NCBI GenBank assembly: GCA_963826115.1
Contig: CAWGVS010000003.1
Coordinates: 32,001 to 96,000, forward strand
Origin: an uncultured Candidatus Rokubacteria bacterium
Lineage (GTDB): Bacteria > Methylomirabilota > Methylomirabilia > Rokubacteriales > DASRDR01
Reading direction: 5' to 3'
Length of the DNA stretch: 64,000 nucleotides
Positions 48,223 to 64,000 of this stretch are shown in pieces. A model generated the notes under the pieces. That model was not told the origin of the DNA and did not search any database. It worked only from the letters and a program-made list of their open reading frames with translations. Position 1 is the first letter of the stretch; each line of letters opens with the position of its first letter. The translations under genes and the position numbers were made by a program.

Positions 48223-48723
48223 ATGGCTACGGACAACTTCATGGTGGGTGAGTCGCTGGTCGGCGACGGCAACGAGATCGCGCACATCGACCTGATCATC
48301 GGTTCGAAGAGCGGGCCCGCCGGGATCGCCTTCGTGCATCGGGTCGCCGACCAGACGGCGGGTCACAACGGGCTCCTCGCCGTGCTCGCGCCCAACGTGC
48401 CGGCCAAGCCGGACACGGTCATGTTCAACAAGGTCACGATCAAGGGCGCCGGCCAGGCCGTCCAGATGTTCGGGCCCGCCCAGGCCGCGGTGGCCAAGGC
48501 GGTCGTCGACAGCGTCGCCGACGGCACCATCCCGAAGGCGAGCGCCAACGACCTCTGCGTGATCGTCGGCGTGTTCATCCACTGGCAGGCGAAGGACAAC
48601 AAGAAGATCTACGACTTCAACTACCGGGCGACCAAGGAAGCGATCACGCGGGCGATGAAGCACCACCCGACCGTGGACGAAGTCCTCGCCCAGAAGGACA
48701 CCGCCAAGCACCCATTCGCGTAG
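48223..48723 (+). CDS. fae: Formaldehyde-activating enzyme
   Basis: VGESLVGDGNEIAHIDL, NKVTIK, QMFGPAQAAVAKAV, VFIHW, NYRATKEAI. Confidence 0.96.
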   Translation: MATDNFMVGESLVGDGNEIAHIDLIIGSKSGPAGIAFVHRVADQTAGHNGLLAVLAPNVPAKPDTVMFNKVTIKGAGQAVQMFGPAQAAVAKAVVDSVADGTIPKASANDLCVIVGVFIHWQAKDNKKIYDFNYRATKEAITRAMKHHPTVDEVLAQKDTAKHPFA

Positions 48724-48745
48724 GCGCGGCGAGTCGCCGCCGCGC

Positions 48746-48785
48746 GGTCGGAGCCCGCGGTCTCGCGCGGCCGCGGGCTCCGGCC
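48746..48785 (+). terminator. Strong intergenic hairpin after fae
   Basis: GGTCGGAGCCCGCGGTC pairs with GGCCGCGGGCTCCGGCC. No U-tract. Confidence 0.55.
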
Positions 48786-48815
48786 CCGCCCTCGCCACGG
48801 CACGCCTGACACGCC

Positions 48816-49715
48816 ATGCTGCGCATCAACGGGGTCGAGATCGAGGACACCTTCGCCGAGGCCTTCAAGATGCGCGCGGCCCGCGCGATCGTGACAGCCG
48901 AAACCGCCGCCTGGGCGCACACCGCAGCGGCGCTCGCGACCGGGTACGCCACCTCCGTCATCGGCTGCGACGCCGAGGCCGGCCTCGAGTCCGAGGTGCC
49001 CCCGCACGAGACGCCGGACGGCCGGCCCGGCGTGAGCCTCCTGGTCTTCGGGTTCAACACCGCCGCGCTCGGGAAGGCGCTGGTGAACCGCGTCGGGCAG
49101 TGCGTGATGACATGTCCCACGACCGCCTGCTTCAACGGGCTCCACCCCGGCGAGGAGACCGTGAAGGTCGGCGCGCTCCTCCGCTTCTTCGGTGACGGGC
49201 ACCAGGCGAGCAAGAAGCTCGACGGCCGCCGCTACTGGCGGGTGCCGGTGATGGACGGCGAGTTCCTCTGCGAGGACACGTTCGGCGTCCAGCGCGCCGT
49301 CGCGGGCGGCAACTTCCTGATCCTCGCCACCGATCAGGCCGCCGGGCTCGCCGCGGCCGAGGCCGCCGTTCGGACCATCCGCGCCGTGCCGGGCGTGATC
49401 CTCCCCTTCCCCGGCGGGATCGTCCGGAGCGGGAGCAAGGTTGGCTCGCGTTACAAGGCGCTGAAGGCGTCGACGAACGACGAGTACTGCCCCACCCTCC
49501 GCGGACTGGGCGCGAGCCGTCTCCCCGCCGAGGTCCACGCCGTCTACGAGATCGTCATCGACGGTCTCGACGTCGGGGCGGTCGAGGCCGCCATGCGCGC
49601 CGGCGTCCGGGCCGCATGCCAACCCGGGGTCGTGCAGATCACCGCCGGCAACTACGGGGGCAAGCTCGGCCAGTACCCGCTCCACCTCCACCGGATCCTC
49701 GAATCCGGGTCATGA
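48816..49715 (+). CDS. fhcD: Formylmethanofuran:H4MPT formyltransferase (Ftr/FhcD)
   Basis: IEDTFAEAF, TSVIGCDAEAG, TPDGRPG, RVGQCVMTCPT, SGSKVGS, AGNYGGKLG. Confidence 0.96.
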   Translation: MLRINGVEIEDTFAEAFKMRAARAIVTAETAAWAHTAAALATGYATSVIGCDAEAGLESEVPPHETPDGRPGVSLLVFGFNTAALGKALVNRVGQCVMTCPTTACFNGLHPGEETVKVGALLRFFGDGHQASKKLDGRRYWRVPVMDGEFLCEDTFGVQRAVAGGNFLILATDQAAGLAAAEAAVRTIRAVPGVILPFPGGIVRSGSKVGSRYKALKASTNDEYCPTLRGLGASRLPAEVHAVYEIVIDGLDVGAVEAAMRAGVRAACQPGVVQITAGNYGGKLGQYPLHLHRILESGS

Positions 49716-50284
49716 TCGTCGAGACGGTGGTGACGACGCTGGACGAGGACGGCCAGGTGAACTTCGCCGCGATGGGCGTCGTGTGGGGCGAGGAGCGTCT
49801 CGTGATCCGGCCCTACGTCGCGACCCGCACGTTCCGGAACCTCGTTCGCACGCGCGAGGCCGTCGTCAACGTCACCGACGACGTGCTGGTCTTCGCGAAG
49901 AGCGCTCTCGCGCGGGAGCGCTTCCCGAGCCGCCCCGCGACGCGGGTCCGCGGCGCGATCCTGGCGGACGCCTGCCACTGGCGCGAGGTCGCCGTCGAGC
50001 GCGTGTCGGCGCCCGATCCCCCGCCGCCGGCGGGCGGCCGGGCCGACGTGGAGACCCGCGTCGTGGCCGGCGCGGTCGGCCGGCCGTTCGCCGGCCTCTG
50101 TCGCGCCAAGCACGCGGTGGTGGAGGCGAGCATTCTCGCCTCGCGGGCGCGGCGCCTCCCGCGGGACGAGGTGCTCAGGGGCCTCGCCCGGCTCGATCCC
50201 CTGGTCGACAAGACCGGCGGGCCGGCGGAGCGCGAGGCCATGGCATACATCCGCGACCACGTCCGCCGCCTCGTGAGCGGCTGA
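49712..50284 (+). CDS. DUF447 family protein
   Basis: MIVETVVTT, NFAAMG, TFRNL, NVTDDV, RAKHAVVEASILASR, KTGG. Confidence 0.85.
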   Translation: MIVETVVTTLDEDGQVNFAAMGVVWGEERLVIRPYVATRTFRNLVRTREAVVNVTDDVLVFAKSALARERFPSRPATRVRGAILADACHWREVAVERVSAPDPPPPAGGRADVETRVVAGAVGRPFAGLCRAKHAVVEASILASRARRLPRDEVLRGLARLDPLVDKTGGPAEREAMAYIRDHVRRLVSG

Positions 50285-50299
50285 CGGCGCCGACCCGGC

Positions 50300-51270
50300 A
50301 TGCGCACGATCGTCGAGGCGGGGGCGCGGCTCCACCTGGGGTTCCTGGACCTCCACGGCGGGTGCGGGCGGCGCTACGGGTCGATCGGCGTCACCCTCGA
50401 GCGCCCGCGCTGCACCGTGGCCGCCGGTCGCGCGCGCCCGGGCGATGCGCCGACGGCGAGCCCCGCGCTCGAGATCCTCGAAGGTCTCGCGCCCGGGCTC
50501 GACCCGAGGGCGATCACGGTCGAGCTCCTCGAGGCGATCCCCGCGCACGCGGGATTCGGCGCGGGCACCCAGCTCGCCCTCGCCGTCGCGCTGGCCGGCG
50601 CGCGCGCCGCCGGCCGCTCGATCGGCATCCGGGAGCTGGCCGCCCGGCTCGGTCGGGGGCAGCGCTCGGGCATCGGCGTCGCAGCCTTCGAGCGGGGTGG
50701 GCTCGTGATCGACGCGGGCCACGCGACGGGCGAGGATGACGGCGCGACCGCGTCACGCGCGCCGGAGCCCCCGCCGGTCGTCTTCCAGCACCCCCTGCCC
50801 GATGCCTGGCAGTTCGTGCTGGCCACGCCGCGCGCCGCTCCCGGTCTCTCCGGCGCGACGGAGCAGCGCGCGTTCGGGGATCTGCCGCCGATGGACGCCG
50901 GACGCGTCGGGCGGATCTGCCGACTCACGCTGATGCAGGTCATGCCGGCGGCGCTGACCAGCGACATCCGAACGTTCGGCGCCGCGATCACCGAGATCCA
51001 GACAGACGGTCGGCGACTACTTCGCGCCGTGGCAGGGCGGTCGGTTCGCGACCGAGACCGGCTGCCGGTGACCGAGCTCGCCCTCGCGCAAGGCGCTCAC
51101 GGCGTGGGCCAGAGCTCCTGGGGTCCGACGGTGTTCGCGCTGGTCCAGGGCGAGGCCGACGCCGAGGCGATGGCCGGCGCGATCGTGGGAGACGCTTCGG
51201 CGAGCGCCTCGCGTGGGTCGGCGTCAGTCCGGCGCGGAACCGGGGCGCGTCGTGCCGAGAGGCACCGTGA
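50300..51270 (+). CDS. mptG: Beta-ribofuranosylaminobenzene 5'-phosphate synthase (MptG), with apparent frameshifts
   Basis: ARLHLGFLDL, HAGFGAGTQL, RSGIG, GQSSWGPT. Motifs VGDYFAPWQGG and ARNRGA lie in shifted frames. Confidence 0.88.
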
Positions 51271-52262
51271 GCGCGAGCGATCGACCTGAACCGCCGCGCC
51301 ATCCGCTCGCCGACGCCCTCGCGGACGACGCCGCGCTCGTCGGCGTCCGGGTCACCGAGGTCGGTGGTGCCCGGCTGATCGACTGCGGCGTGGGCGTGGC
51401 GGGCGGGCTCGAGGCCGGGCGGCGCCTCGCGGAGATCTGTCTCGCCGGCCTCGGCACGGTGTCGCTCACCAGCGTGGACGTCGGAGGCCTCTGGCTCGCC
51501 GCGGTGGCGGTGACCACCGATCACCCGGTGACCGCGTGCCTCGCGAGCCAGTACGCCGGGTGGGCCATCGACCCCCCGGGGTACTTCGCCATGGGCTCGG
51601 GTCCCGCCCGCAGCGTGGCCCGGGTGGAGCGGGAGCTCTACCAGCGGATCGGCTATGCGGAGTCGGGAGACTCGGCCGTGCTCGTGCTGGAGGGTCGCGC
51701 CCTGCCGGACGAGGCGGTCGTGCGGTTCGTGGCCGACAAGTGTCGCGTCCGGCCGGAGGGTCTGAGCCTCCTGATCGCCCCCACCGCCAGCATCGCCGGC
51801 TGCGTCCAGGTGGCCGCGCGCTCCGTGGAGACGGGGCTCCACAAGATGCTCGAGCTCGGGTTCGACGTGCGCGCCGTGCGGAGCGGCGCCGGCGTGTGCC
51901 CGCTCGCCCCGGTGGCGAAGAACGACCTCCGCGGCATCGGCTGGACGAACGACTGCATCCTCTACGGCACGCGCGCCTACTTCGCCGTCCACGCCGACGA
52001 TGCCGAGGTCGCGGCGATGGTCGAGCGGCTCCCCGCCTCCTCGTCGGCGGACTACGGCACGCCCTTCTACGACATCTTCAAGCGGGCCGGGAACGACTTC
52101 TACAAGATCGACAAGATGCTGTTCAGCCCCGCCGAGGTCGTCGTGAACAACCTCGCCTCGGGGCGCGTCCTCCGGGCCGGACGGCTCGCCCCCGAGATCC
52201 TCCGCAGGTCGCTCGGGCTGGACGAGTCCGCGCCGGGCGCCGGTCCCGGGAGCCGGTCGTGA
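51267..52262 (+). CDS. mch: Methenyl-H4MPT cyclohydrolase
   Basis: GGLEAG, ACLASQYAGW, MGSGPAR, QVAARSVE, TNDCILYG, DFYKID..LFSPA. Confidence 0.96.
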   Translation: MSASDRPEPPRHPLADALADDAALVGVRVTEVGGARLIDCGVGVAGGLEAGRRLAEICLAGLGTVSLTSVDVGGLWLAAVAVTTDHPVTACLASQYAGWAIDPPGYFAMGSGPARSVARVERELYQRIGYAESGDSAVLVLEGRALPDEAVVRFVADKCRVRPEGLSLLIAPTASIAGCVQVAARSVETGLHKMLELGFDVRAVRSGAGVCPLAPVAKNDLRGIGWTNDCILYGTRAYFAVHADDAEVAAMVERLPASSSADYGTPFYDIFKRAGNDFYKIDKMLFSPAEVVVNNLASGRVLRAGRLAPEILRRSLGLDESAPGAGPGSRS

Positions 52263-53167
52263 AGGTCGTCATCCTGGGCTCCCGGTCCGGCTGGCACGAG
52301 GCCCGTCTCGGGCACGCGCTCCGGGAACGCGGCGCGGAGCCCATGGTGGCGCCGGTCACCGCGCTCGCGACCGCCGTGGCGGCCCCGGGCGAGGGACCGC
52401 GGCTCGCCGCCGGCGGCGTGCCGCTCGACGACTGCGGCGCGGTGATCGTGCGCGCGATCCCCGCCGGCTCGCTCGAGCAGGTGATCTTCCGGGTGGACGC
52501 CCTCCACCGCATGGCCCGACTCGGCGTCGCAGTCATCAACTCCCCGCGGTGTGTGGAGCGCACGGTGGACAAGTACTTCACCTCGACGATCCTCGAGGAC
52601 GCGGGCCTCCCGACGCCCCGGACCCGCGTGTGCGAGCGGGTCGACGACGCGCTCGCCGCCTACGAGGCCCTGGGCCGGGACGTCGTGATCAAGCCCCTCT
52701 TCGGCTCGGAGGGTCGCGGGATCGTGCGGGTGTCCGATCCCGACCTCGCGTACCGCACCTGCCGGGCCCTCGAGCTCACGCGGTCGGTATTCTATCTGCA
52801 GGAGTTCGTGCCCCACGGGGAGCGCGACATCCGAGCGTTCGTCGTCGGCGGCCGTCTGGTGGCGGCCATGACTCGCCGGGGCGCGGGGTGGAAGACGAAC
52901 GTCTCGCAGGGCGCGCGCGCGGAGCGGGTCGCCCTGTCCCCGGCGCTCGAGCGCCTGAGTCTCGAGGCCGCGGGGCGGCTCGAGGCCGACTACGCGGGGG
53001 TGGACCTTCTGTGCGCGGACGACGGGCGGACCTTCGTGATCGAGGTCAACGGGATACCGGGATGGCGCGGGCTCCAGCAGACGACCGACGTCGACGTCGC
53101 CGGCGCGATCGCCGACCACGCCATCGCGGTCGCCGGGCGCGGGCTCCCCGTCCCGGCCGCGCCATGA
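52259..53167 (+). CDS. RimK-family ATP-grasp glutamate ligase (Orf5/MptN-like)
   Basis: GSLEQVIFRVDAL, DKYFTS, KPLFGSEGRG, WKTNVSQG, EVNGIPGW. Confidence 0.9.
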   Translation: MKVVILGSRSGWHEARLGHALRERGAEPMVAPVTALATAVAAPGEGPRLAAGGVPLDDCGAVIVRAIPAGSLEQVIFRVDALHRMARLGVAVINSPRCVERTVDKYFTSTILEDAGLPTPRTRVCERVDDALAAYEALGRDVVIKPLFGSEGRGIVRVSDPDLAYRTCRALELTRSVFYLQEFVPHGERDIRAFVVGGRLVAAMTRRGAGWKTNVSQGARAERVALSPALERLSLEAAGRLEADYAGVDLLCADDGRTFVIEVNGIPGWRGLQQTTDVDVAGAIADHAIAVAGRGLPVPAAP

Positions 53168-54048
53168 GCGCGGCGGCGGTCCTCGCGGACCGGCCCTCGC
53201 CGGCGCGCATCGCGGCGGCCGCGACCCTGGCCTGCACGCTCGAGGCCTGCGCGGAGAAGGTGGGCAACGTCACGCCCACCCGCGCCTTCGCCGACGCGCG
53301 CTTCGACGACTTCGCGCTGAGCGCGCAGGCGCTCGGGTCCGCGGTCGCCGGCGCCGCGCCGGGCCGGGTGGGCCGCGCGATCTACGACGCGGTCGCCGCG
53401 ACCGGCCGCGTCGCGCCGTCCAACACCAACCTCGGCATGGCCCTCCTGTTCGCGCCGCTCGCGGCCGCCGCCCGCGGGCGCTCGAGGACGGCGCTCCGGC
53501 GTCGCCTGGTGCCGGTGCTGCGAGGGCTGAGCGTCGACGACGCGCGCTGGGCCTACCGGGCGATCCGCCTCGCGCGCCCGGGCGGGCTCGGGGAGAGCCC
53601 GGACGCGCCGGTCGCCCGCCCGCCCCGCATCACACTCGGCGAGGCCATGCGGCTGGCCGCGCGGCGGGACACCGTGGCGGCGGAGTACGGTCGGGGCTTC
53701 GCGGTGACGTTCGACCTCGCCCTCGCGCGGCTCCGCCGGGCGCTCCGCCGCGGCCTCCCGCTGCTCGACGCGATCGCGCAGGCCCACCTCGAGCTGATGG
53801 CCCGCGTGCCGGACACCCTGATCGCGCGCAAGGCCGGCGCCGCCGCCGCCGCGCGAGTGGCCGCGCGCGCCGACGCGGTGGTGCGGGCCGGGGGGATCGC
53901 GACGCGGCGCGGGCTCGCCGCCGCGCGGCGGCTCGACCGAGACCTCCGGCGGCACGGGAACCGCCTGAACCCCGGCACGTCGGCGGACCTCGTCGCTGCC
54001 GCCCTGTTCGTGTGGCTCCTGGAAGCGCCGGGACGAGGGCGCGCATGA
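53164..54048 (+). CDS. CitG-like protein of H4MPT clusters (Orf7)
   Basis: LEACAEKVGNV, NTNLGMALL, DTLIARKAG, NPGTSADLVAA. Confidence 0.88.
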   Translation: MSAAAVLADRPSPARIAAAATLACTLEACAEKVGNVTPTRAFADARFDDFALSAQALGSAVAGAAPGRVGRAIYDAVAATGRVAPSNTNLGMALLFAPLAAAARGRSRTALRRRLVPVLRGLSVDDARWAYRAIRLARPGGLGESPDAPVARPPRITLGEAMRLAARRDTVAAEYGRGFAVTFDLALARLRRALRRGLPLLDAIAQAHLELMARVPDTLIARKAGAAAAARVAARADAVVRAGGIATRRGLAAARRLDRDLRRHGNRLNPGTSADLVAAALFVWLLEAPGRGRA

Positions 54049-54569
54049 GCCGGCCGCCGAGCCCCTTCCGCGTCCGCATCGAGAAGGACTACACCGTCTT
54101 CTGCGCCGGCCACTTCATCACGTACGACGGGCACGAGTGCGAGCCGCTCCACGGCCACAACTACCGGGCGGCGGCCGCGCTGGAGGGCCCGCTGGACGAG
54201 AACGCCTACGTCTTCGACTTCAGCAAGCTCAAGCGCGCGCTCCGCGCCATCGTCGACCGCCTCGACCACCGGATGCTCCTGCCGACCAAGAGCGCGCTCA
54301 TCCGGGTTACGCAGTCGGGCGCCGAGGTGGAGGCGGCCTACCGGGAGAAGCGGTACGTCTTCCCGGCGAGCGACGTGGTGCTCCTCCCGATCCCCAACAC
54401 CACCGCCGAGATGCTGGCCTGGTGGATCGCGCAGGAGCTTCGCCGAAGTCTGGGCGCGCTCTCGCCCGGGATGACGGCCCTCGAGGTCGAGGTCGACGAG
54501 TCGTCCGGCCAGCGGGCCTTCTACCGGGAGCCGCTCGATTCCCCGGGCGGCGGAGCCGGGCCGGCGTGA
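54045..54569 (+). CDS. 6-pyruvoyl-tetrahydropterin synthase/QueD family, hybrid CExxHGH (PTPS-I/III) type
   Basis: FCAGH, CEPLHGHNY, DFSKLK, LDHRML, TTAEMLA, VDES. Confidence 0.88.
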   Translation: MSRPPSPFRVRIEKDYTVFCAGHFITYDGHECEPLHGHNYRAAAALEGPLDENAYVFDFSKLKRALRAIVDRLDHRMLLPTKSALIRVTQSGAEVEAAYREKRYVFPASDVVLLPIPNTTAEMLAWWIAQELRRSLGALSPGMTALEVEVDESSGQRAFYREPLDSPGGGAGPA

Positions 54570-56026
54570 CGGCGCCGTCGGTCGTCTACCTCGGCCTCGG
54601 CTCGAACCTGGGCGACCGCCAGGCGAACCTCGCGGAGGCGATCCAGGCCCTCCGCACCCACGTCCGGATCGAGCGCGTGTCCCCCGTGTACGAGACCGAG
54701 CCGGTGCACGTGACCGACCAGCCGCGGTTCCTGAACCTCGCCGTGAAGGGCGTCACCGCCCTCGAGCCGGCGGAGCTCCTCGCCGCGGTCAAGCGCATCG
54801 AGGCGCGGATGGGCCGGCAGCCGGGCGAGCGGTACGGCCCGCGGCCGATCGACGTCGACATCCTCTTCTACGGCGACCGCGTGATCCGCACCGACGCGCT
54901 CGAGGTGCCGCACCCGCGGGCCGCCGAGCGCGGCTTCGTCCTGGTGCCGCTCCACGACATCGCCCCCGACCTCCGGCATCCGGAGCGCGGGCGCAGCGTC
55001 GCCGAGCTCCTCCGGGATCTCGGGGAGACGCGCGGTATCGTCCGCGTGGCGCGCGGCCTCACGGCGCGGCTCGAGCGCGATGTCCAGGAGGAGTCGCCGC
55101 TCGCGCGGATCCGGCTCGACCAGACGGGCGTCACGGGACTCCACCGCATCATCCGCCTCTCCGACGGCCGGGGCCTCTTCTACGCGACGCTCGACCTCTT
55201 CGTCGAGCTGCCGGCCGACCAGAAGGGCGCCCACATGTCGCGCTTCAGCGACACGGTGGAGGAGGTGCTCGAGGACCTGGGCGCCTTCGAGGCCCCGATG
55301 ATCGAGACGCTCGCCGAGCGCATCGCGCGCGCCCTGACCGTCGGCCATCGCGCCGAGCGCGCGGACGTGGAGATCCGCGCCCAGTTTCCGCTCGAGCGCC
55401 GCGCGCCGATCTCCGGCAAGCCCTCGCAGGAGCTCTACACGCTGATCGGCCTCGCCGCCGCCAGCCCGCGCCGCACGGTCCAGCTCATCGGCGTGGAGGC
55501 GGAGGGGATGATGGCGTGCCCGTGCGCCCAGGAGATGGTCCGCGCGCAGGCCGAGGCGCGCCTCCGGGAGCACGGGCTCGCGCCGGACCTCACCGCGGAG
55601 GTCTTGTCGCTGGTCCCGATCGCCACGCACAACCAGCGGGGGCGCGGGCGCCTGCTGGTCGGCGCGGACCGCGCGCTCCGCGCCGAGGACCTGGTCGAGA
55701 TCGTCGAGGGCGCGATGAGCTCCGAGAACTACGACCTCCTGAAGCGCCCGGACGAGCTGTTCGTGGTGGAGAAGGCGCACCGCCACCCCCGTTTCGTCGA
55801 GGACGCGGTGCGGGAGATGCTGCGGACCTTCGTGAGCACCTACCCCGAGCTGGCGGACGACGCCTACGTCCACGCCCGGCAGGTGAACATGGAGACGATC
55901 CACAAGCACGACGTCTTCGCCCAGCGCGGCGGGCAGCTGGGCGAGATCCGGGGCGAGCTCCTCGACGGGAAGCCCCGCGGGAGCACCGCGCTCTCCGCCT
56001 GGCTCGCCGCCCGGCTCGCGGGCTAG
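54566..56026 (+). CDS. Fusion of FolK (HPPK) and MptA/FolE2-family GTP cyclohydrolase
   Basis: N-half YLGLGSNLGDR, YETEP, FLN, GPRPIDVDIL, PHP. C-half KGAHMSRF, GMMACPCAQ, THNQRG, LKRPDE, PRFVED, ETIHKHD. Confidence 0.92.
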   Translation: MTAPSVVYLGLGSNLGDRQANLAEAIQALRTHVRIERVSPVYETEPVHVTDQPRFLNLAVKGVTALEPAELLAAVKRIEARMGRQPGERYGPRPIDVDILFYGDRVIRTDALEVPHPRAAERGFVLVPLHDIAPDLRHPERGRSVAELLRDLGETRGIVRVARGLTARLERDVQEESPLARIRLDQTGVTGLHRIIRLSDGRGLFYATLDLFVELPADQKGAHMSRFSDTVEEVLEDLGAFEAPMIETLAERIARALTVGHRAERADVEIRAQFPLERRAPISGKPSQELYTLIGLAAASPRRTVQLIGVEAEGMMACPCAQEMVRAQAEARLREHGLAPDLTAEVLSLVPIATHNQRGRGRLLVGADRALRAEDLVEIVEGAMSSENYDLLKRPDELFVVEKAHRHPRFVEDAVREMLRTFVSTYPELADDAYVHARQVNMETIHKHDVFAQRGGQLGEIRGELLDGKPRGSTALSAWLAARLAG

Positions 56027-56763
56027 CCGGGCGCGATCAGGTCGGCGGCGCCCAGGACGCCGGTATGGAGCGCGGTCCCGACCAGCGCGGCCTGGTAGCC
56101 CGCGGCCGCGAGCGCGCGAAGGTCGTCCCGGCCCCGCACCCCGCCGCCGAGCACGATCTCGGCCTCCGGCAGCCGCGCCCGGAGCCGCCGCGCGGGCTCC
56201 GTCTCGGGACCGGCGCGCGCTCCCACGCGCGCGAGGTCGAGGACGATGAACGTCCGGAGGCCCGCCGCCCAGGCCTCGGCGGCCAGCTCCGTGGCCTCGG
56301 CCCCGGCGACGGCCGGCGATCCGCCGAGGAGCCGCCCCTCGCGATGGTCGAGGCTCAGGATGCAGTCCGCGCCGCGGCTCGTCTCCCGCACGGCCGTGGC
56401 GATCGCGCGGAGGTCGCGCACGTCGCGCAGCGTCTCCGTGCCGACGATCACCCGCGCGGCGCCGTGCGAGACGGCGCGCCGGGCGCCGTCGGCCGTGGAC
56501 ACGCCGGCGTCGAGCCACACCGACAGCCCGAGCTCGGCGATCGCCCGGACGACCGGGCCGTGGTCGCCCGTGCCCGCGATGGCGTCGAGGTCGGCGACGT
56601 AGCAGGCGTCCGAGCCCAGGCGCTCGCGGAAGCCGCGCGCGAGGGCGACCGGGTCCGCGGAGTCCGAGAGCACGCTCCGTACCGGCGCGTAGGCGTGACG
56701 CTCGCCGCGCACCGCATGGACGGCCACGCCGCCCTTCAGGTCCATCACGGGCACGATGCGCAT
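56023..56763 (-). CDS. HisA-like TIM barrel of H4MPT/methanofuran clusters (Orf17)
   Basis: IVPVMDLKGGVAVHAVRGER, YVADLDAI, VGTETL, LDLARVG, GGGVR. Confidence 0.88.
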   Translation of the reverse strand: MRIVPVMDLKGGVAVHAVRGERHAYAPVRSVLSDSADPVALARGFRERLGSDACYVADLDAIAGTGDHGPVVRAIAELGLSVWLDAGVSTADGARRAVSHGAARVIVGTETLRDVRDLRAIATAVRETSRGADCILSLDHREGRLLGGSPAVAGAEATELAAEAWAAGLRTFIVLDLARVGARAGPETEPARRLRARLPEAEIVLGGGVRGRDDLRALAAAGYQAALVGTALHTGVLGAADLIAPG

Positions 56764-56843
56764 CGCGGAGCGGAGGATAGCACGCGTGCAACGCATCTTG
56801 GCGACGACGCCGGTCTGACCGGACGGCCTTCGGCCTGTGGGCG

Positions 56844-57866
56844 ATGACCCGCGCAAGCCGGGTCCTCGGCTGGGACGTGGGCGGCGCCTACGTCAAGGCG
56901 GCGGTCGTGGAGCAGGACGGAGCCGGACGCCGTGTCCGCACGGCGAGCCGGCCCTTCGAGATCTGGCGCGACAAGAACGCCTTGCCCGACGTCCTCCGCG
57001 CGCTCGCCGCCGAGCTGCCCGCACCGGAGTCCGTGGCGGTGACGATGACCGCGGAGCTCTCGGACGTGTTCCGGACGAAGCGCGAGGGCGTCCACTTCGT
57101 CCTCGACGCCGTCGAGGCCGTGTCGCGGGCGCCGGTGCGCGTCTTCACGACGGCGGGCGAGTTCGTGGACCCCGCCGTCGCGCGGGCGCGGCCCCTCGAC
57201 GCGGCGGCCTCCAACTGGGTCGCCACCGCCCTGCTGGTCGGGCGGTTCGTCCCCGAGACGCTCCTCGTGGACATCGGCTCGACGACGACCGACGTGATCC
57301 CGGTGACGAAGGGGCAGGTCGCGGCCCTCGGCCGGACCGACCCCGAGCGGCTCTCGAGCGGGGAGCTCGTCTACACCGGTGCCCTCCGCACGAACGTGGC
57401 GGCCATCGTCCGTCGGGTCCCCTTGCGGGGCGCCCAGTGCCCGGTGGCCTCCGAGCTGTTCTCGGTGAGCGGCGACGTCCACGTGCTCCTCGGATCTCTC
57501 GCGCCGGATGAGTACACGTGCCCGACTCCCGACGGCCGGCCGCCCACGCCGGAGTTCGCGGCGGAGCGCCTCGCGCGGGTCGTGTGCGCGGACGGCGACA
57601 TGCTCGACCCCGAGGAGATCCGGGCCATCGCGCGGGCGGTCGACGAGGCGCAGGTCGAGGAGATCGCGGGGGCCATCGCCCGGGTGGCGGGCCGGCGGGC
57701 CGAGGGAACGCCCGTGATCGTCACCGGGCTCGGCGCCTTCCTCGCGCGCCGCGCCGCGGAACGGCTCGGGCTGCCGGTCCGGGATCTCGCGGACGTCCTC
57801 GCCGTCGACGTCGGCACCGTCGCGCCCGCGGTCGCCGTCGCCTGGCTCCTCCTCGACGCCGACTGA
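56844..57866 (+). CDS. mfnF: H4MPT-linked hydantoinase/oxoprolinase-like protein (Orf9/MfnF)
   Basis: GWDVGGAYVK, TMTAELSD, AASNW, DIGSTTTD, ELVYTGALRT, RLARVVCAD. Confidence 0.88.
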   Translation: MTRASRVLGWDVGGAYVKAAVVEQDGAGRRVRTASRPFEIWRDKNALPDVLRALAAELPAPESVAVTMTAELSDVFRTKREGVHFVLDAVEAVSRAPVRVFTTAGEFVDPAVARARPLDAAASNWVATALLVGRFVPETLLVDIGSTTTDVIPVTKGQVAALGRTDPERLSSGELVYTGALRTNVAAIVRRVPLRGAQCPVASELFSVSGDVHVLLGSLAPDEYTCPTPDGRPPTPEFAAERLARVVCADGDMLDPEEIRAIARAVDEAQVEEIAGAIARVAGRRAEGTPVIVTGLGAFLARRAAERLGLPVRDLADVLAVDVGTVAPAVAVAWLLLDAD

Positions 57867-57869
57867 CGC

Positions 57870-58523
57870 ATGCGCCGGGCTCGCGCGACGCCCGACTGGG
57901 TGATCAAGGTCGGCGGGAGTCTGGGCGCGCGACCCGCCCCGCTCCGTCGCCTGATGGCCACCCTGGCGCGCGCCGGGCGGCACCGCTGGCTCGTCGTCGT
58001 CCCCGGCGGCGGTAGCTTCGCCGACGAGGTGCGCCGGGCCGACCGCCGCTACGACCTCGGCGACTCGGCCGCCCACTGGATGGCCATCCTGGCGATGGAC
58101 CAGTACGGCCATCTTCTCGCGCGGCTCGCGCCCGGGGCACGCGTCGCGGCGAGCCGGCGCGAGCTCGCCCCGGGCCGGCTCAACGTGCTGCTCCCGTCAG
58201 CCTGGCTCCGGCGCGCCGACCCCCTGCCCCATTCCTGGGACGTCACGTCGGACTCGATCGCCGCGTGGGTGGCCCGCGAGCTCGGCGTCCGGCGCCTCAT
58301 GCTGGTGAAGCACCGTGACGGTTTCGTCGCGCCCGCCCGCGGGCCGCGGAGGGTGCCGCCGCGCGAGCGGCGATCCTCCCTCGCCGCGCTCGCGGGCGCG
58401 GTCGACCCCTATTTCGCGCGCGCCGTCGATCCGGCCACTGGCTGCTGGCTCGTCCAGGGACACCGGCCCGGCGCGATCGCGCGTCTCATCGACGCGGACG
58501 GGCCGCGCGGATCGCGCGCCTAG
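57870..58523 (+). CDS. mfnE: Amino-acid-kinase family protein (Orf21/MfnE-like)
   Basis: VIKVGGSL, VPGGGSFADEVR, AHWMAILAMDQ, PHSWDVTSDSIA, VDPYF. Confidence 0.85.
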   Translation: MRRARATPDWVIKVGGSLGARPAPLRRLMATLARAGRHRWLVVVPGGGSFADEVRRADRRYDLGDSAAHWMAILAMDQYGHLLARLAPGARVAASRRELAPGRLNVLLPSAWLRRADPLPHSWDVTSDSIAAWVARELGVRRLMLVKHRDGFVAPARGPRRVPPRERRSSLAALAGAVDPYFARAVDPATGCWLVQGHRPGAIARLIDADGPRGSRA

Positions 58524-58555
58524 GAGCGCCCTCTCACCGCTCGGCGGTCGGGCGG

Positions 58556-59275
58556 TCAGGCCGACTGCCCGACGGTCGGCCGGGGGCCGCGTGCGCGGAC
58601 GAGGGCGCGCACCCGCTCGGCGTCGACCCGGCCCCCGACACGGTCGCCGATGCAGGCGGCGCCGCGCACGCCCACGAGGTCGGGGCCGATCGGCGCGAGC
58701 CGCGCGAGGTCCTCGACCCGAAGGGAGCCGGCGAGCGCCGAGAAGAGGCCGCGCGCGCGGCAGTCCTCGACGAAGGCCGCGAGCTCGTCCTCGCCGAGCC
58801 AGTGGAAGAGCCCGCGGCCGTCCTTCACGGCGGTGTCGACCAGGCAGCCGTGGGCGCCCGCGGCGGCGGCGAGGGCCGGCAGGTCGCGGGGCCGGGGCGC
58901 TCCCGCGCGCGCGAAGTCGGCGAAGCCCGCCACCACGAGGTAGGCCTCGGGAGGCAGGCTCGCGCGCGCCGCGCGAAGAGCGGCCGCGGCCGCCGCCGGC
59001 GACGTCTCGCGGAGCCCGAGCTTCACGTAGATCGCGCCGCTCCGCGCCGCCGCCCCGGCCAGGGCCGCCGCCACCGCCGGCGTGAACGGCCCATCGCCGA
59101 GCGCGGCGCTCACCGGCAGGCTCGCGGGCGTGGCGTCCCGCACCGCGCGGACCGTGGCCGGCGCGGCCTCGCCGAGGGCTCCGAGCGCGGGATCCTTGAC
59201 GTCGATGATGTCGGCGCCGGCGTCCGCCGCGATCCGGGCTTCCGCGGCGTCCACGACGCTCACCAGGAGGCGCAT
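58556..59275 (-). CDS. mfnB: (5-formylfuran-3-yl)methyl phosphate synthase (Orf22/DUF556)
   Basis: MRLLVSV...EA, GADIIDVKDP..GALG, PVSAALGD, DTAVKDG, LAGSL, GVRGAAC. Confidence 0.92.
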   Translation of the reverse strand: MRLLVSVVDAAEARIAADAGADIIDVKDPALGALGEAAPATVRAVRDATPASLPVSAALGDGPFTPAVAAALAGAAARSGAIYVKLGLRETSPAAAAAALRAARASLPPEAYLVVAGFADFARAGAPRPRDLPALAAAAGAHGCLVDTAVKDGRGLFHWLGEDELAAFVEDCRARGLFSALAGSLRVEDLARLAPIGPDLVGVRGAACIGDRVGGRVDAERVRALVRARGPRPTVGQSA

Positions 59276-59342
59276 CGGCCGGCATTATAGTAGTCGGGTA
59301 TCGGCGCGGCAACGGACCCACCCCCAGGAGGGCGCGAAACCG

Positions 59343-60101
59343 GTGAGGCGTCTCGACGGTCAGGTGGCGGTGGTCACCGGGGCGAGCCGGGGCATCGGCC
59401 GCGCGATCGCGCTCGCGCTCGCGCGGGAAGGCGCGCGCGTCGTCGTCAACTACTCCCGGTCGCGTGAGCTCGCCGAGGCCGTGGTCGCCGAGATGGTTGC
59501 CGCCGGGGGCGAGGCCCTCGCCATCCGCGCGGACGTTTCGCGGTCGGACGACGTCGCCAATCTCCTGGGCTCGACGCTCGGCACGTGGGACCGGATCGAC
59601 ACGTGGGTCAACAACGCGGGCGCCGACATCCTGACGGGCGACGCGCGGACCTGGCCCCCCGAGCGCCGCTGGGACGCGGTGATGACCGTCGACCTCAAGG
59701 GCACCTGGCTGTGCTCGCGGGCGGCGGCGGACGCGATGCGCCGGGCCGGCGGCGGCGTCATCGTGAACCTCTCCTGGGACCACGTCACCCACGGGATGGG
59801 CAACCAGACGGCGGCCATCTACGCCGCCGCGAAGGGCGGCGTGGCGGCCATGAGCCGTTCCCTCGCGCGGGAGTACGCGCCCCTCGTGCGGGTCAACGTG
59901 GTCGCGCCCGGCTGGGTCCGGACCGAGTGGCTCGACGGCGCCGGCGCCGAGGTCCAGCAACACGTGAGGGACGCGACCCCGCTCGGCCGTCCCGGCACGC
60001 CCGACGACGTCGCCGGCGCGGTCGCGTTCCTCGCCTCCGCCGACGCGGCCTTCATCACCGGACAGACCCTGCTGGTGAACGGAGGCGTCGTGGCCAGCTG
60101 A
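59343..60101 (+). CDS. Short-chain dehydrogenase/reductase
   Basis: TGASRGIG, NNAG, YAAAK, VNVVAPG, ITGQ. SD AGGAGG. Confidence 0.92.
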   Translation: MRRLDGQVAVVTGASRGIGRAIALALAREGARVVVNYSRSRELAEAVVAEMVAAGGEALAIRADVSRSDDVANLLGSTLGTWDRIDTWVNNAGADILTGDARTWPPERRWDAVMTVDLKGTWLCSRAAADAMRRAGGGVIVNLSWDHVTHGMGNQTAAIYAAAKGGVAAMSRSLAREYAPLVRVNVVAPGWVRTEWLDGAGAEVQQHVRDATPLGRPGTPDDVAGAVAFLASADAAFITGQTLLVNGGVVAS

Positions 60102-60189
60102 TGCGCCACACGGCGCGGGCCGCGTGGACGCTCCGGCGCCCCGCGGTCCGGCGACCATTTGCGAAGCGCGAGATCCGCAGGAGGGCATC

Positions 60190-60570
60190 ATGGCTGAAGA
60201 GAAGAAGCTCCCGGTCCTTCCGGACGACGAGATCGAGCGGCGGCTCGCCCAGGAGCTGCCGGGCTGGTGGTACGAGGGCCGCTGGATCCGCCGGAAGTAC
60301 AACACGGACGGCTGGCTCACGACGCTCGCGATGGTCAACACGATCGGCTACGTCGCCGAGGCCGCCTGGCACCATCCGGACCTCGAGGTGACGTGGGGCA
60401 AGGTGTGGGTGAAGCTGCGCACCCACTCGAGCAACGGTGTCACGGAGCGGGACTTCGCGCTGGCCAAGCGCCTCGAGGACGCGGTCCTGTGGCGCCCGGG
60501 CTCGGGCTCCCACATGGAGGGCACGCCCAACAAGTGGGTGAAGGGCGGGAGCCCCGATAAGCCCGCCTGA
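60190..60570 (+). CDS. Pterin-4a-carbinolamine dehydratase family (PcbD of C1 clusters)
   Basis: IRRKY, EAAWHHPDL, THS..GVTERDF.LA. Confidence 0.88.
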   Translation: MAEEKKLPVLPDDEIERRLAQELPGWWYEGRWIRRKYNTDGWLTTLAMVNTIGYVAEAAWHHPDLEVTWGKVWVKLRTHSSNGVTERDFALAKRLEDAVLWRPGSGSHMEGTPNKWVKGGSPDKPA

Positions 60571-60592
60571 GCGGAGGGCCACCGACCCGCCC

Positions 60593-61975
60593 GTGCCCAA
60601 GACGCTCTTCGTCACCGGCAAGCTCGCCGAGCCGGCGCTCCGGGCGACGCTCGCCCGGATGGCGCCGGACTTCCCCTACGAGGTGGTGGTCCTGCGGATC
60701 ACCGTCGCCGCGCTCATGACGACCTCCTGGATCGCGAAGCACCTCACGGACGTCTCCGGCTCGGAGCGCATCGTCATCCCGGGTCTCTGCGAGGGCGACG
60801 TGCGGGCGATCGAGGACCGGTGGGGCGTGAGGGCCGAGAAGGGGCCCACCGACCTCCGGGACCTGCCGGAGCACTTCGGTCAGGCGGCGCTCCGGGAAGA
60901 ATACGGCGCCCACGACATCCGGATCTTCGCGGAGATCAACAACGTCCCGTACCTCCCCCGCGAGGAGGTGGTGCGGGCAGCGGAGTACTACCGGGCGAGC
61001 GGCGCCGACGTCGTCGACCTCGGCTGCTCCCTCGACCGGAAGTTCGACGACGTCGCCGAGGTCGTGGGCCTCCTGAAGGCCCGCGGGTTCACCCTCAGCA
61101 TCGACACCCTCGACCCCGGGGAGATCGCCGCCGCCGACCGGGCCGGCGTCGACTACGTGCTGAGCCTGAACGGCCGGAACCTCGACCTGGCCGACACGCT
61201 CCGGGCCACGCCGGTCCTCATCCCGGACTCGCCCGCCGAGCTCGACACCCTGGACCGGAGCATCGCCCGTCTCGAGGCGCTCGGGCATCCCTACATCGTG
61301 GATCCGGTGATCGAGCCGATCGGGTTCGGCTTCGCGGCGGCGCTCGACCGCTACGTGCAGGTCCGGGCGCGCCACCCCGCGGTCGAGATCCTGATGGGCA
61401 TCGGCAACATCACGGAGCTGACCGACGCCGACACCACCGGGATGAACGCGCTCCTGATCGGCTTCTGCCAGGAGCTCGGCGTCCGTCACGTGCTCACGAC
61501 CGAGGTCATCCCGTGGGCGCGCGGCTCGGTGCGGGAGATCGACGTGGCCCGCCGTCTGATGTACGCGGCCCGCCAGCGCGGCGTCCTCCCGAAGCACGTC
61601 GACGACCGGCTGCTCACGGTCAAGGACGCGCGACCGAAGTACTACGCGGAGGCGGAGCTCCGGGAGCTCCACCGCGCGATCACCGATCCGAACTTCCGCA
61701 TCGCGACGACGCGCGATGCGATCTGCGTGTTCAACAACCGCCTGTTCGTGACCGGCACGGACATCCAGGCGATCTTCGAGCAGCTCGACGTCCAGGACCC
61801 CGCCCACGCGTTCTACCTCGGCAAGGAGCTGATGAAGGCCCGCCTCGCGCTCCTCCTCGGCAAGACCTACGTGCAGGAGCAGCCGCTCCGCTGGGGCTAC
61901 CTGACGCCCCCGCGCGAGGACACGGCCCACCGCCGCGTGCGGATCGAGGGACGCCGGAAGCCGCGGGACCAGTAG
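60593..61975 (+). CDS. Dihydropteroate synthase-like protein (Orf20-type)
   Basis: LFVTGKLAE, VAALMT, GADVVDLG, DPVIEPIGFG, GIGNITELTDAD, HAFYLGKEL. Confidence 0.88.
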   Translation: MPKTLFVTGKLAEPALRATLARMAPDFPYEVVVLRITVAALMTTSWIAKHLTDVSGSERIVIPGLCEGDVRAIEDRWGVRAEKGPTDLRDLPEHFGQAALREEYGAHDIRIFAEINNVPYLPREEVVRAAEYYRASGADVVDLGCSLDRKFDDVAEVVGLLKARGFTLSIDTLDPGEIAAADRAGVDYVLSLNGRNLDLADTLRATPVLIPDSPAELDTLDRSIARLEALGHPYIVDPVIEPIGFGFAAALDRYVQVRARHPAVEILMGIGNITELTDADTTGMNALLIGFCQELGVRHVLTTEVIPWARGSVREIDVARRLMYAARQRGVLPKHVDDRLLTVKDARPKYYAEAELRELHRAITDPNFRIATTRDAICVFNNRLFVTGTDIQAIFEQLDVQDPAHAFYLGKELMKARLALLLGKTYVQEQPLRWGYLTPPREDTAHRRVRIEGRRKPRDQ

Positions 61976-62048
61976 GGCTCCCTCCCCGGCCGGATCGGCA
62001 GGGAATGCCGGTCCGGGGCACGCCGTCCAACGTGGCAGGAGGGACGTC

Positions 62049-62300
62049 ATGGAGCGCACAGGTTCGTCGATCCCGAAGACCTCGGTCCGTCCCCCGCGCA
62101 GGGCGCTCGGCCTCGGCCTCGGCGCCGGGCTGCTGGCCCTCGCGGGCACCCTCGCGCTCGGCGGCTGCTACGTCGTGCCGGCCCACACGGCCTATGTCGC
62201 GCCGGCGCCCGTCTACGTGACGCCCGCCCCCGTGTACGTGGTGCCCGCGCCCAGGTACTACTACGGCGGGTACGGGTGGCGGGGCTACCGACGCTGGTGA
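62049..62300 (+). CDS. Small Pro/Tyr-rich lipoprotein
   Basis: SD GGAGG, lipobox LGGC, APAPVYV repeats. Confidence 0.7.
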   Translation: MERTGSSIPKTSVRPPRRALGLGLGAGLLALAGTLALGGCYVVPAHTAYVAPAPVYVTPAPVYVVPAPRYYYGGYGWRGYRRW

Positions 62301-62405
62301 GGAGCGTCCGACCGCGCCGATCGGTCCGCTGATCGCCGCCGCGCCTCCCGCGGCGCGTGGGGTAGGATTGTGGGACGCCGCAAGTCACCCCACCGGGAGG
62401 TGCGC

Positions 62406-63260
62406 GTGAAGAAGTTGCTCCTGCAGCTCGATCCCGACAAGCATCCCAGCGCGTTCGACCGCATCGTCGCCCACGACGCGGGCGCGGATGAGGTCCTGAG
62501 CTACGGCGGCGTGGCGCCGGCCGACGTCACGCCGCTCGTGCACGGCGCGATCTTCACGCGCGGACCCGGCGAGCTCCGCAACACCGCGATATGGGTCGGC
62601 GGCACGGACGTCGGCCAGGCCGAGGCGCTGTTCGCCGCGGTCCAGAAGGCGTTCTTCGGCCCGTTCCGGGTCAGCGTGATGATGGACGCCAACGGGTGCA
62701 ACACGACCGCCGCCGCCGCGGTGGCGCGGCTCGCCGGCGTGGTCACGCTCTCCGGCGCCCGGGCCGTCGTCCTGGGCGGAACCGGGCCGGTCGGGCTCCG
62801 GGCGGCGACGCTCCTGGCGCGCGAGGGCGCCGGCGTGACCCTCTGCTCGCGGTCCCACGAGCGGGCACGCGCCGCGTGCGAGCAGCTGAAGGCGCGCTTC
62901 GCGGTGGACGTGAGCCCGTGCGAGGCGTGGGACGAGGAGGGGGTGGCGCGCGCGCTCGAGGGCGCCGACGTCTGCCTGACCGCCGGCGCCGCCGGCATTC
63001 AATTCCTCCCGCGCTCCCTGTGGGCTCCGCACCCCGCGCTGAAGGCGCTCGCCGATGTGAACGCGGTCCCCCCGCTGGGCATCGGCGGCATCGAGGCGAC
63101 CGACAAGGGGGCCGAGCGAGACGGCAAGCGCGTGTTCGGCGCGCTCGGCATCGGCGGCCTCAAGATGAAGGTCCACCGCGCGTGCGTGGCGAAGCTCTTC
63201 GAGCGAAACGACACCGAGCTGGACCTCGAGGCCATCTACGCTGCCGCGCGCGCCAGCTGA
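62406..63260 (+). CDS. mtd: NAD(P)-dependent methylene-H4MPT dehydrogenase (MtdC/MtdA-like)
   Basis: KKLLLQLD..HPSAFD, HGAIFTRG, FFGPFRVSVM.DANGCNTTAAA, GGTGPVG, DVNAVPP, IGGLKMK. Confidence 0.92.
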   Translation: MKKLLLQLDPDKHPSAFDRIVAHDAGADEVLSYGGVAPADVTPLVHGAIFTRGPGELRNTAIWVGGTDVGQAEALFAAVQKAFFGPFRVSVMMDANGCNTTAAAAVARLAGVVTLSGARAVVLGGTGPVGLRAATLLAREGAGVTLCSRSHERARAACEQLKARFAVDVSPCEAWDEEGVARALEGADVCLTAGAAGIQFLPRSLWAPHPALKALADVNAVPPLGIGGIEATDKGAERDGKRVFGALGIGGLKMKVHRACVAKLFERNDTELDLEAIYAAARAS

Positions 63261-63296
63261 GGCACCCGCGGCGCGCTCGGGCCCCGCTCCCGACTG

Positions 63297-64000
63297 ATGC
63301 CGCGCGTCGTCGGCGTCGATCCCGGCACGCAGAGCGTGGACCTCTGCGGACTCGCGGACGGCCAGGTGTTCCTCGAAGCGTCGGTCCCGGCCGATGAGGG
63401 GGGCCGCGCCCCGGCGGCGCTGGTGGACCGGCTGGCCGCGGCGCTTCCCCTCGACCTGATCGTCGCGCCCTCCGGCTACGGGCTGCCGCTCGTCCCCGTC
63501 GCCCAGCTCGACCCGTCGCGCCTCGACCTCGCGCTCCTCGTGCGACCCGAGGACCGCGCGCAGCCGGAGCGTGTCGGCGGCCTCCGCGCCATGCTCGAGG
63601 GGATGCAGGCGCGCGGGCTGCCGGCGGTTCTCCTGCCCGGCGTGGTGCACCTCGACACCGTGCCGGCGCACCGCAAGGTGAACCGCGTCGACATGGGCAC
63701 CGCGGACAAGCTGTGCGTGGCCGCCCTCGGCATCTGGGACCAGAGCCGCCGCCTCGCGTGTTCGCCCGCCGAGACCGGATTCGTGCTGCTCGAGCTCGGT
63801 GGCTTCTTCACCGCCGCGCTCGCCGTCGAGGCGGGGTGCGTCGTCGACGGGATCGGCGGGAGCGCGGGAGGCCTCGGGTACCGCGCCCTCGGGACGCTCG
63901 ACGGCGAGGTCGCCTACGTCCTCGGACGGGTGCGGAAGTCGGCGCTCTTCACCGGCGGGGCCGCGTTCGTCGCCGGCGCGCCGGACCTCTCCCCCGAGGA
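63297..64000 (+). CDS. DUF1464 family protein (ASKHA-like), truncated by the window end
   Basis: Own translation: MPRVVGVDPGT, APSGYGLP, PGVVHL.TVP.HRKVNRVDMGTADK, DGIGGS. Confidence 0.85.
   Translation, partial: MPRVVGVDPGTQSVDLCGLADGQVFLEASVPADEGGRAPAALVDRLAAALPLDLIVAPSGYGLPLVPVAQLDPSRLDLALLVRPEDRAQPERVGGLRAMLEGMQARGLPAVLLPGVVHLDTVPAHRKVNRVDMGTADKLCVAALGIWDQSRRLACSPAETGFVLLELGGFFTAALAVEAGCVVDGIGGSAGGLGYRALGTLDGEVAYVLGRVRKSALFTGGAAFVAGAPDLSPE

Follow-up and report, generated by a model that had tools for sequence, protein, structure and literature searches.

How does a bacterium that carries a methanopterin gene island make the pterin part of this cofactor if the island encodes no recognisable FolB, MptD or MptE? 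The question is raised by a 64,000-nucleotide stretch of an uncultured soil bacterium, a member of Candidatus Rokubacteria (GenBank assembly GCA_963826115.1, contig CAWGVS010000003.1), hereafter the window, in whose annotated island Pfam and NCBIfam profile scans found none of these three genes. The island holds instead a gene of the 6-pyruvoyltetrahydropterin synthase family (PTPS), which overlaps a single open reading frame (ORF) joining FolK to a GTP cyclohydrolase. We conclude, with a probability of roughly 85%, that the two genes form a module leading from GTP to 6-hydroxymethyl-7,8-dihydropterin diphosphate in which the PTPS would bypass FolB. An initial annotation, made from the sequence of the window, had described a CEPLHGH-type PTPS beside one FolK-cyclohydrolase ORF, and the ORF coordinates and the Pfam and NCBIfam domains bear this arrangement out.

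A single ORF joins FolK to a GTP cyclohydrolase

The fusion is encoded on the forward strand at positions 54566..56026 as one ORF of 486 residues that begins with GTG and has no internal stop; the stop codon between the domains that the initial annotation had considered as a possible flaw is absent. In Pfam, residues 8-134 match HPPK (136 bits) and residues 171-452 match GCHY-1 (215 bits). The HPPK (FolK) domain (54587..54967, forward strand) scores 144.7 bits with the NCBIfam profile TIGR01498, for which the cut-off is 54.1, and its catalytic motifs are intact: mapped by motif onto the Escherichia coli residues named in Protein Data Bank (PDB) titles, the catalytic and binding residues N14, Q52, E79, R84, R93, D96, D98, H116 and F124 are all present. 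An AlphaFold2 model of the whole protein has a mean predicted local distance difference test score of 92.9 and a predicted template modelling (TM) score of 0.73, and its top Foldseek matches are GCYH-IB and HPPK structures, the latter at a TM-score of about 0.9 by target length. When the best 120 of 4505 homologue matches were classified by domain, 118 carried both Pfam domains (117 of 119 excluding the protein of the window), which answers the domain-architecture check suggested earlier, and the fusion is a single ORF in 32 of 33 full-length genome loci. These counts rule out a sequencing or assembly artefact as the origin of the fusion.

In several lineages the HPPK half has lost its catalytic motifs while staying near full length (loci L015, L016 and L035 at ~6001-6500; proteins P0128, P0126 and P0136). 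Three Anaerolineae genomes with such a decayed half possess a separate, intact FolK-FolP fusion. Either the domain decayed after its replacement or it has a non-catalytic role, for example feedback sensing on the cyclohydrolase.

The cyclohydrolase half is of the MptA type

The cyclohydrolase domain spans residues 171-465 (55076..55960, forward strand) and carries an insert of about 30 residues that FolE2 lacks. With NCBIfam hidden Markov models (HMMs), the fusion scores 280 bits for MptA (TIGR00294; cut-off 220) and 140 for FolE2 (NF010200; cut-off 215), whereas the Neisseria gonorrhoeae FolE2 used as a control gives the reverse pattern, 124 and 290 bits. In a comparison with 16 records from a plasmid collection, the domain reaches 167 bits with a haloarchaeal MptA, at most 99 with the 14 FolE2-type proteins and 109 with one unnamed match. 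Its residues C318, C320, H355, E397, E443 and H446 align to N. gonorrhoeae C147, C149, H159, E201, E243 and H246, which we take to be the active-site residues of GCYH-IB. The insert, which follows the CPC motif, and residues G309, G314, M384 and H405 are archaeal-type features that set the domain apart from FolE2, and this insert and these residues are 89-98% conserved in the bacterial clade. In a tree of 136 rows, a quick search in which long branches meet near FolE2, the domain belongs to a clade of 93 rows that are bacterial or unnamed (Shimodaira-Hasegawa-like approximate likelihood-ratio test, SH-aLRT, 99), and the Rokubacteria fusions are nested among Chloroflexota rows; 8 of the 39 rows outside this clade are named archaeal, and the three FolE2 rows sit on a branch of length 1.53. 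On profile, alignment and tree the domain is thus assigned to the MptA type, and plain FolE2 identity is ruled out by the FolE2 score under its cut-off, the insert after CPC and the weaker matches to FolE2 proteins. The initial annotation had left the domain as MptA/FolE2; the first half of that label stands and the second does not.

The family assignment leaves two products to be weighed. We know of no residue that decides the product of MptA as against FolE2, and consequently the cyclic phosphate and the triphosphate of dihydroneopterin are inseparable by sequence. In PMC13397572, MptA is treated as a family that releases pyrophosphate and for which no structure has been solved; the MptA-MptB route is given in PMC3087415.

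A divergent GCYH-IB homologue also occurs on an Arthrobacter conjugative plasmid (L086:1832-6519), where it shares an operon with unnamed genes and one for a TauD-like dioxygenase, perhaps a cluster for a pterin or deazapurine product.

The PTPS resembles FolB-bypassing enzymes

The PTPS gene (54045..54569, forward strand) encodes a long-form, PTPS-III-like protein of 174 residues (COG0720; Pfam PTPS, 87 bits) with the motif C32-E33-P-L-H36-G-H38, that is CEPLHGH, a CExxHGH sequence from which a FolB bypass is predicted. Eleven PDB entries matched the protein; the best four are Plasmodium PTPS-III enzymes, aligned over nearly its full length (E values 4e-19 to 4e-18), and QueD-type entries matched at 1e-9 or weaker. 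E33 aligns to the active-site glutamate of the Plasmodium enzyme (position E38), so that the protein shows the ExxHGH motif of PTPS-III. This Glu-38 is critical in Plasmodium (PMC2229834), and PTPS-III has a standard description in PMC4674097. PTPS-I/III hybrids with CExxHGH are already known, and the motif of the window protein matches their definition in PMC5041015.

The cysteine before the glutamate is kept in all 21 readable neighbours of fusions, in 119 of 120 top homologues and in all nine fusion-adjacent copies in a class-wide sample (described below), and it is replaced by serine in seven PTPS copies beside other folK genes. The link between this cysteine and MptA is a lead only, because the seven serine copies form one clade and because CE also occurs in two copies from genomes without MptA (G185 and G198); it is found, too, in short PTPS proteins beside folK in Dehalococcoidia.

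The serine clade (SExxHGH; L099-L102 and L105-L107) adjoins folK-type genes that measure some 460-560 codons and look like FolK-FolP, and its genomes have FolE and no FolB.

Distribution of the pair and of FolB

Of 79 genome loci, 33 hold the full-length fusion and 23, from Actinomycetota and chiefly from Thermoleophilia, hold MptA by itself; the rest are partial matches. The full-length loci belong to Rokubacteria/Methylomirabilota, Chloroflexota, Acidobacteriota and one Lentisphaerota; Eremiobacterota have related fusions, as do Synergistota, in which the HPPK is decayed. PTPS lies upstream of the fusion in 23 of the 33 loci, methanopterin-island genes lie within 6 kb in 24, and in three phyla the two genes are neighbours, whichever of them comes first. 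Two Acidobacteriota genomes have the PTPS within the island and the fusion elsewhere. Of 151 genomes sampled from the phylum of the host, 8 carry the full fusion, and every one of these belongs to the host's own genus; the fusion was likely gained together with the island.

Across fusion genomes the long PTPS and FolB tend to replace each other. The 24 such genomes outside Rokubacteria comprise 14 with PTPS only, 9 with FolB only, 1 with both and none with neither; sub-threshold FolB matches, which are located within the MptA domain, do not enter the count. A class-wide sample covered 161 genomes from a single class of Chloroflexota (judging by a named member, Anaerolineae; 90% completeness requested) and shares two genomes with the set of 24. 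The long PTPS occurs in 18 of these genomes, GCHY-1 in 15 and both in 10, where about 1.7 would be expected by chance (hypergeometric probability 4e-8, or 1.5e-6 minus the two genomes already seen, neither corrected for kinship). A search for FolB in these 18 long-PTPS genomes and in the 5 GCHY-1-only genomes, 23 of the 161, found it in 1 of the 18 and in all 5. Thus FolB is missing where the long PTPS occurs in 14 of 15 fusion genomes outside Rokubacteria and in 17 of 18 genomes of the class sample, but PTPS and FolB occur together in the host and in all 10 Rokubacteria-type genomes. Together with motif and fold, this co-distribution supports the view that the PTPS would act as a substitute for FolB, resembling PTPS-III rather than QueD, and the FolB-bypassing role that had been predicted from the motif is to this extent upheld.

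The source of its substrate differs between genomes. Neither FolE nor FolB was matched in 14 genomes that have both PTPS and fusion (10 of the 14 PTPS-only genomes and G052, G084, G087 and G155), and the PTPS there should therefore depend on the MptA product, provided that these metagenome-assembled genomes (MAGs) are complete at the genes in question. In the class sample, relatives of the long PTPS co-occur with FolE in 8 of 8 genomes without GCHY-1, from which it follows that the subfamily can work downstream of FolE.

A gene for methenyl-H4MPT cyclohydrolase (mch; H4MPT, tetrahydromethanopterin) exceeds the cut-off in 28 of 34 fusion genomes; since the other six have no such match, the pair is not specific to methanopterin. 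The stand-alone MptA-type gene of Thermoleophilia and relatives (L037-L059; G035-G045) usually lies beside rpoD. In 11 such genomes tested, FolB and FolK are kept in 11, FolE is present in 1 and mch in none, for which reason this gene is probably the folate cyclohydrolase of these bacteria.

Two loci, L103 (genome G198) and L104 (G020), share the same gene order, but in G198 the fusion is cut to FolK alone. The MptA domain has apparently been lost there, and folE and folB lie elsewhere in that genome.

The host also encodes a housekeeping route to the pterin

The host genome (99% complete, 5% contamination) also carries folE (contig C6), folB-folK (C2) and folP (C5) outside the window, each over its NCBIfam cut-off. 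FolE is found in 8 of 10 related Rokubacteria-type genomes as well, so that the host folE is not contamination, and dihydroneopterin triphosphate is therefore available to the PTPS in the cell. The earlier statement that folB, mptD and mptE are lacking is true of the window, but folB is present in the genome. The initial annotation had also named a folB just beyond the window as an objection to its proposal; in substance this objection holds, although the gene lies on another contig and not just past the window end. MptD (PF04038) and MptE (PF01973), which together mark the methanococcal MptA-MptB-MptD-MptE route, had no match in the host genome and were both detected in archaeal controls.

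Directly before folE and a short-chain dehydrogenase/reductase (SDR) gene on contig C6 stand two tandem PTPS paralogues (L001:6422-7837), one with ATIHGH, which has neither the cysteine nor the glutamate, and one with CARDHGH. Eight of 10 Rokubacteria-type genomes have this tandem pair too, and the host has no QueC; together with folE and the SDR the pair is possibly a biopterin-type pathway.

A proposed route and its alternatives

We propose that PTPS and fusion are a mobile pterin-supply module which in the host would serve as a second, island-dedicated source for Orf20 and methanopterin beside the housekeeping folE/folB/folK/folP route. The MptA domain would convert GTP to dihydroneopterin 2',3'-cyclic phosphate, which is the product of the only MptA characterised and is suggested by family membership; a putative phosphodiesterase encoded elsewhere would open the ring to the monophosphate; the PTPS, with Glu33 as predicted base, would cleave the side chain in place of FolB, a role to which motif, fold and co-distribution point, with the monophosphate as presumed substrate; and the HPPK domain, which has the expected residues, would add the diphosphate. 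In the host, the PTPS could probably also use the triphosphate made by FolE. The sequence of cyclic phosphate, unlinked hydrolase and PTPS acting on the monophosphate is put forward tentatively, at a little short of an even chance; the odds that we attach to routes are judgements and not computed values. Archaeal PTPS-III enzymes in methanopterin synthesis might use the monophosphate, according to PMC5041015. The initial annotation had required either an MptA-like domain that forms the triphosphate or a PTPS that accepts the cyclic phosphate, and had regarded both as new chemistry. This requirement is not supported, because folE can supply the triphosphate and because an unlinked phosphodiesterase followed by PTPS-III on the monophosphate has precedent as a possibility raised for archaea (PMC5041015).

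Several observations weigh against the module or its proposed route. All ten other Rokubacteria-type fusion genomes tested have both PTPS and FolB, so that a bypass is not needed in them. The counts of FolB and PTPS come from incomplete MAGs and carry no correction for kinship. A sister clade of the PTPS occurs in FolE-only genomes, which points to the triphosphate as substrate of the subfamily, and F227 of the bacterial cyclohydrolase clade is shared with two of the three FolE2 rows and differs from most archaeal-type rows. No MptB was apparent among 14 HD-domain matches of the host that were read by eye (9 scanned against NCBIfam, with no MptB profile), and no phosphodiesterase gene was conserved beside the fusion among the recurring neighbours at 33 genome and 40 metagenome loci. 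For the genome loci that scan used 34 cluster representatives from all 79; on the metagenome side it covered 40 of 80 loci, with clusters read by eye and singletons unannotated. A missing MptB is nevertheless usual, since haloarchaea with MptA still have a gap at the phosphodiesterase step (PMC8305020).

The host encodes a YmdB-type metallophosphoesterase (L119; contig C7:10787-11584; TIGR00282 over cut-off), a generic candidate for ring opening with no link to the pathway. Proteins of this type presumably act on cyclic nucleotides.

The alternative that survives best, though we consider it rather unlikely, is that the bacterial MptA-like clade makes dihydroneopterin triphosphate as FolE2 does, in which case ordinary PTPS-III chemistry would complete a three-step route with no helper. 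This would account for the 14 genomes with the pair, neither FolE nor FolB, and no linked helper, for the 10 of 11 Thermoleophilia/Actinomycetota genomes in which stand-alone MptA is accompanied by FolB with no FolE match, and for the PTPS relatives that accompany FolE in the 8 genomes lacking GCHY-1; moreover, as the bacterial proteins form a clade of their own, their product could differ from that of archaeal MptA. The conserved MptA-type insert and residues, and HMM scores that favour MptA over FolE2, speak against it all the same.

It is clearly less probable that the PTPS itself takes the 2',3'-cyclic phosphate, opens the ring and cleaves the side chain, the cysteine being kept for that job and the gap left by MptB thereby filled. 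Retention of Cys32 near the fusion, although QueC occurs in only 6 of 25 genomes with the long PTPS (7 of all 34 fusion genomes), its replacement by serine beside other folK genes and the lack of a linked phosphodiesterase would fit such a role. The serine copies represent one event, however, the cysteine also occurs without MptA, and retro-aldol cleavage should need an unblocked hydroxyl at the 2' position, where the cyclic phosphate would be in the way. In addition, the fusion is found without the long PTPS in 9 of 24 genomes, where another ring opener would therefore be needed if the product is cyclic.

Slightly more remote still is the view that the two genes are uncoupled neighbours, with housekeeping FolE as the main source for the PTPS, and the MptA domain serving as a back-up (for example one independent of zinc) or feeding FolB. 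The presence of folE, folB and folK in the host, the separate positions in the two Acidobacteriota genomes and the lack of an adjacent PTPS at 10 of the 33 genome loci and at 34 of the 40 metagenome loci are in line with it; the adjacency kept in either gene order throughout three phyla, and also in genomes with no FolE match, is not. Finally, that the PTPS is wholly or mainly a QueD for queuosine is very improbable and is ruled out as its main role: the motif does contain CxxxHGH and hybrid PTPS-I/III enzymes exist (PMC5041015), but the QueD HMM gives 68 bits against a cut-off of 89, no QueC was found in the host genome (queE, queF and tgt were not searched for), and 5 of the 6 genomes holding both QueC and the long PTPS have a further PTPS gene.

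Relation to known systems

The module appears to be a pathway variant built of known kinds of parts in an undescribed packaging, and not a new kind of system. Methanocaldococcus jannaschii MptA (MJ0775, TIGR00294) resembles the cyclohydrolase domain in its HMM score above cut-off, active-site residues, insert, place at the first pterin step and methanopterin context; the domain of the window differs in being bacterial, in belonging to a separate clade, in its fusion to FolK and in having no MptD, MptE or apparent MptB in its host, and its product is a prediction. Bacterial GCYH-IB/FolE2 (N. gonorrhoeae, PDB 3D2O and 5K95) shares the catalytic residues and the fold, with a TM-score of about 0.8 when scaled to target length, at about 25-30% identity. 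Plasmodium PTPS-III (PDB 1Y13 and 2A0S), bacterial PTPS-III and the PTPS-I/III hybrids share with the window PTPS the glutamate, the zinc-binding histidines, the long insert and the complementarity to FolB; in contrast to them, it has a cysteine before the glutamate without a queuosine pathway, its partner is of the MptA type rather than FolE, and folB is kept. Another parallel, by description, is Pyrococcus furiosus PF1278. PTPS-III enzymes of this type are paired with MptA in Thermococcales, and we know of no FolK fusion in such a system. PF1278 is annotated as a dihydroneopterin monophosphate aldolase, the activity proposed for PTPS-III in the archaeal pterin route (PMC5041015). FolK-FolP and FolB-FolK-FolP proteins are likewise folate-pathway fusions with an N-terminal HPPK, but they join consecutive steps, whereas here the step that begins the pterin branch is fused to the one that ends it.

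We found no description of a FolK-MptA fusion in the open-access literature, outside which key primary papers may list it, and the passages on fusions in PMC1971073 do not name it. Public databases already carry both domain calls for homologues of the fusion, which is labelled as a cyclohydrolase only; the PTPS is labelled as a generic or QueD-type synthase. In the literature searched, only one MptA has a reported product, and the following step is an acknowledged gap outside methanogens (PMC8305020). The bacterial clade of MptA, which apparently provides the only GTP cyclohydrolase I of some genomes, is packaged with FolK and a FolB-bypass enzyme, and the two-gene pair thus offers a simple test case for whether bacterial MptA makes the cyclic phosphate or the triphosphate. 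Any outcome would help to annotate the genes for folate and methanopterin more accurately in Chloroflexota, Rokubacteria and other groups. Should the PTPS both open and cleave the cyclic phosphate, no pterin branch described so far would be shorter, and there would be a hint as to how MptA-bearing organisms without MptB close the gap.

The methanopterin island

The pair lies in an H4MPT/methanofuran one-carbon island (48223..64000, no strand assigned) that begins with fae at 48223 and runs past the window end to about 65500. Its genes are fae, fhcD, DUF447, mptG, mch, mptN-like, citG-like, PTPS, folK-mptA, hisA-like, mfnF-, mfnE- and mfnB-like, SDR, pterin-4a-carbinolamine dehydratase, orf20, mtd and DUF1464; fhcA-, fhcB-, fhcC- and fwdD-like genes lie on another contig of the same genome. 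The citG-like gene overlaps the PTPS gene by ATGA, and the PTPS gene overlaps the fusion by GTGA. Methanopterin-linked genes in Chloroflexi, Synergistetes and NC10 have already been reported (PMC5020050).

An Orf20-like, dihydropteroate-synthase-like protein (60593..61975, forward strand; Pfam DUF6513 and DUF4346; TIGR00284 at 194 bits, under the cut-off of 256.65) is the likely consumer of the pterin diphosphate. MptG, of the RFA-P synthase family, is encoded at 50300..51289 on the forward strand (TIGR00144, 166 bits; cut-off 113.5). Pterin diphosphate is the substrate of Orf20, and MptG makes its other, non-pterin substrate. The initial annotation had the pair supply both proteins. Its position within the island agrees with supply to Orf20; MptG falls outside this role, and the fusion genomes without mch limit any general tie to methanopterin.

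The SDR, which has a weak pteridine-reductase match, and the pterin-4a-carbinolamine dehydratase lie between 59364 and 60570 of the window. Rokubacteria retain both in the island, and the dehydratase is an island member in Chloroflexota too. The two may have roles in the reduction or repair of methanopterin.

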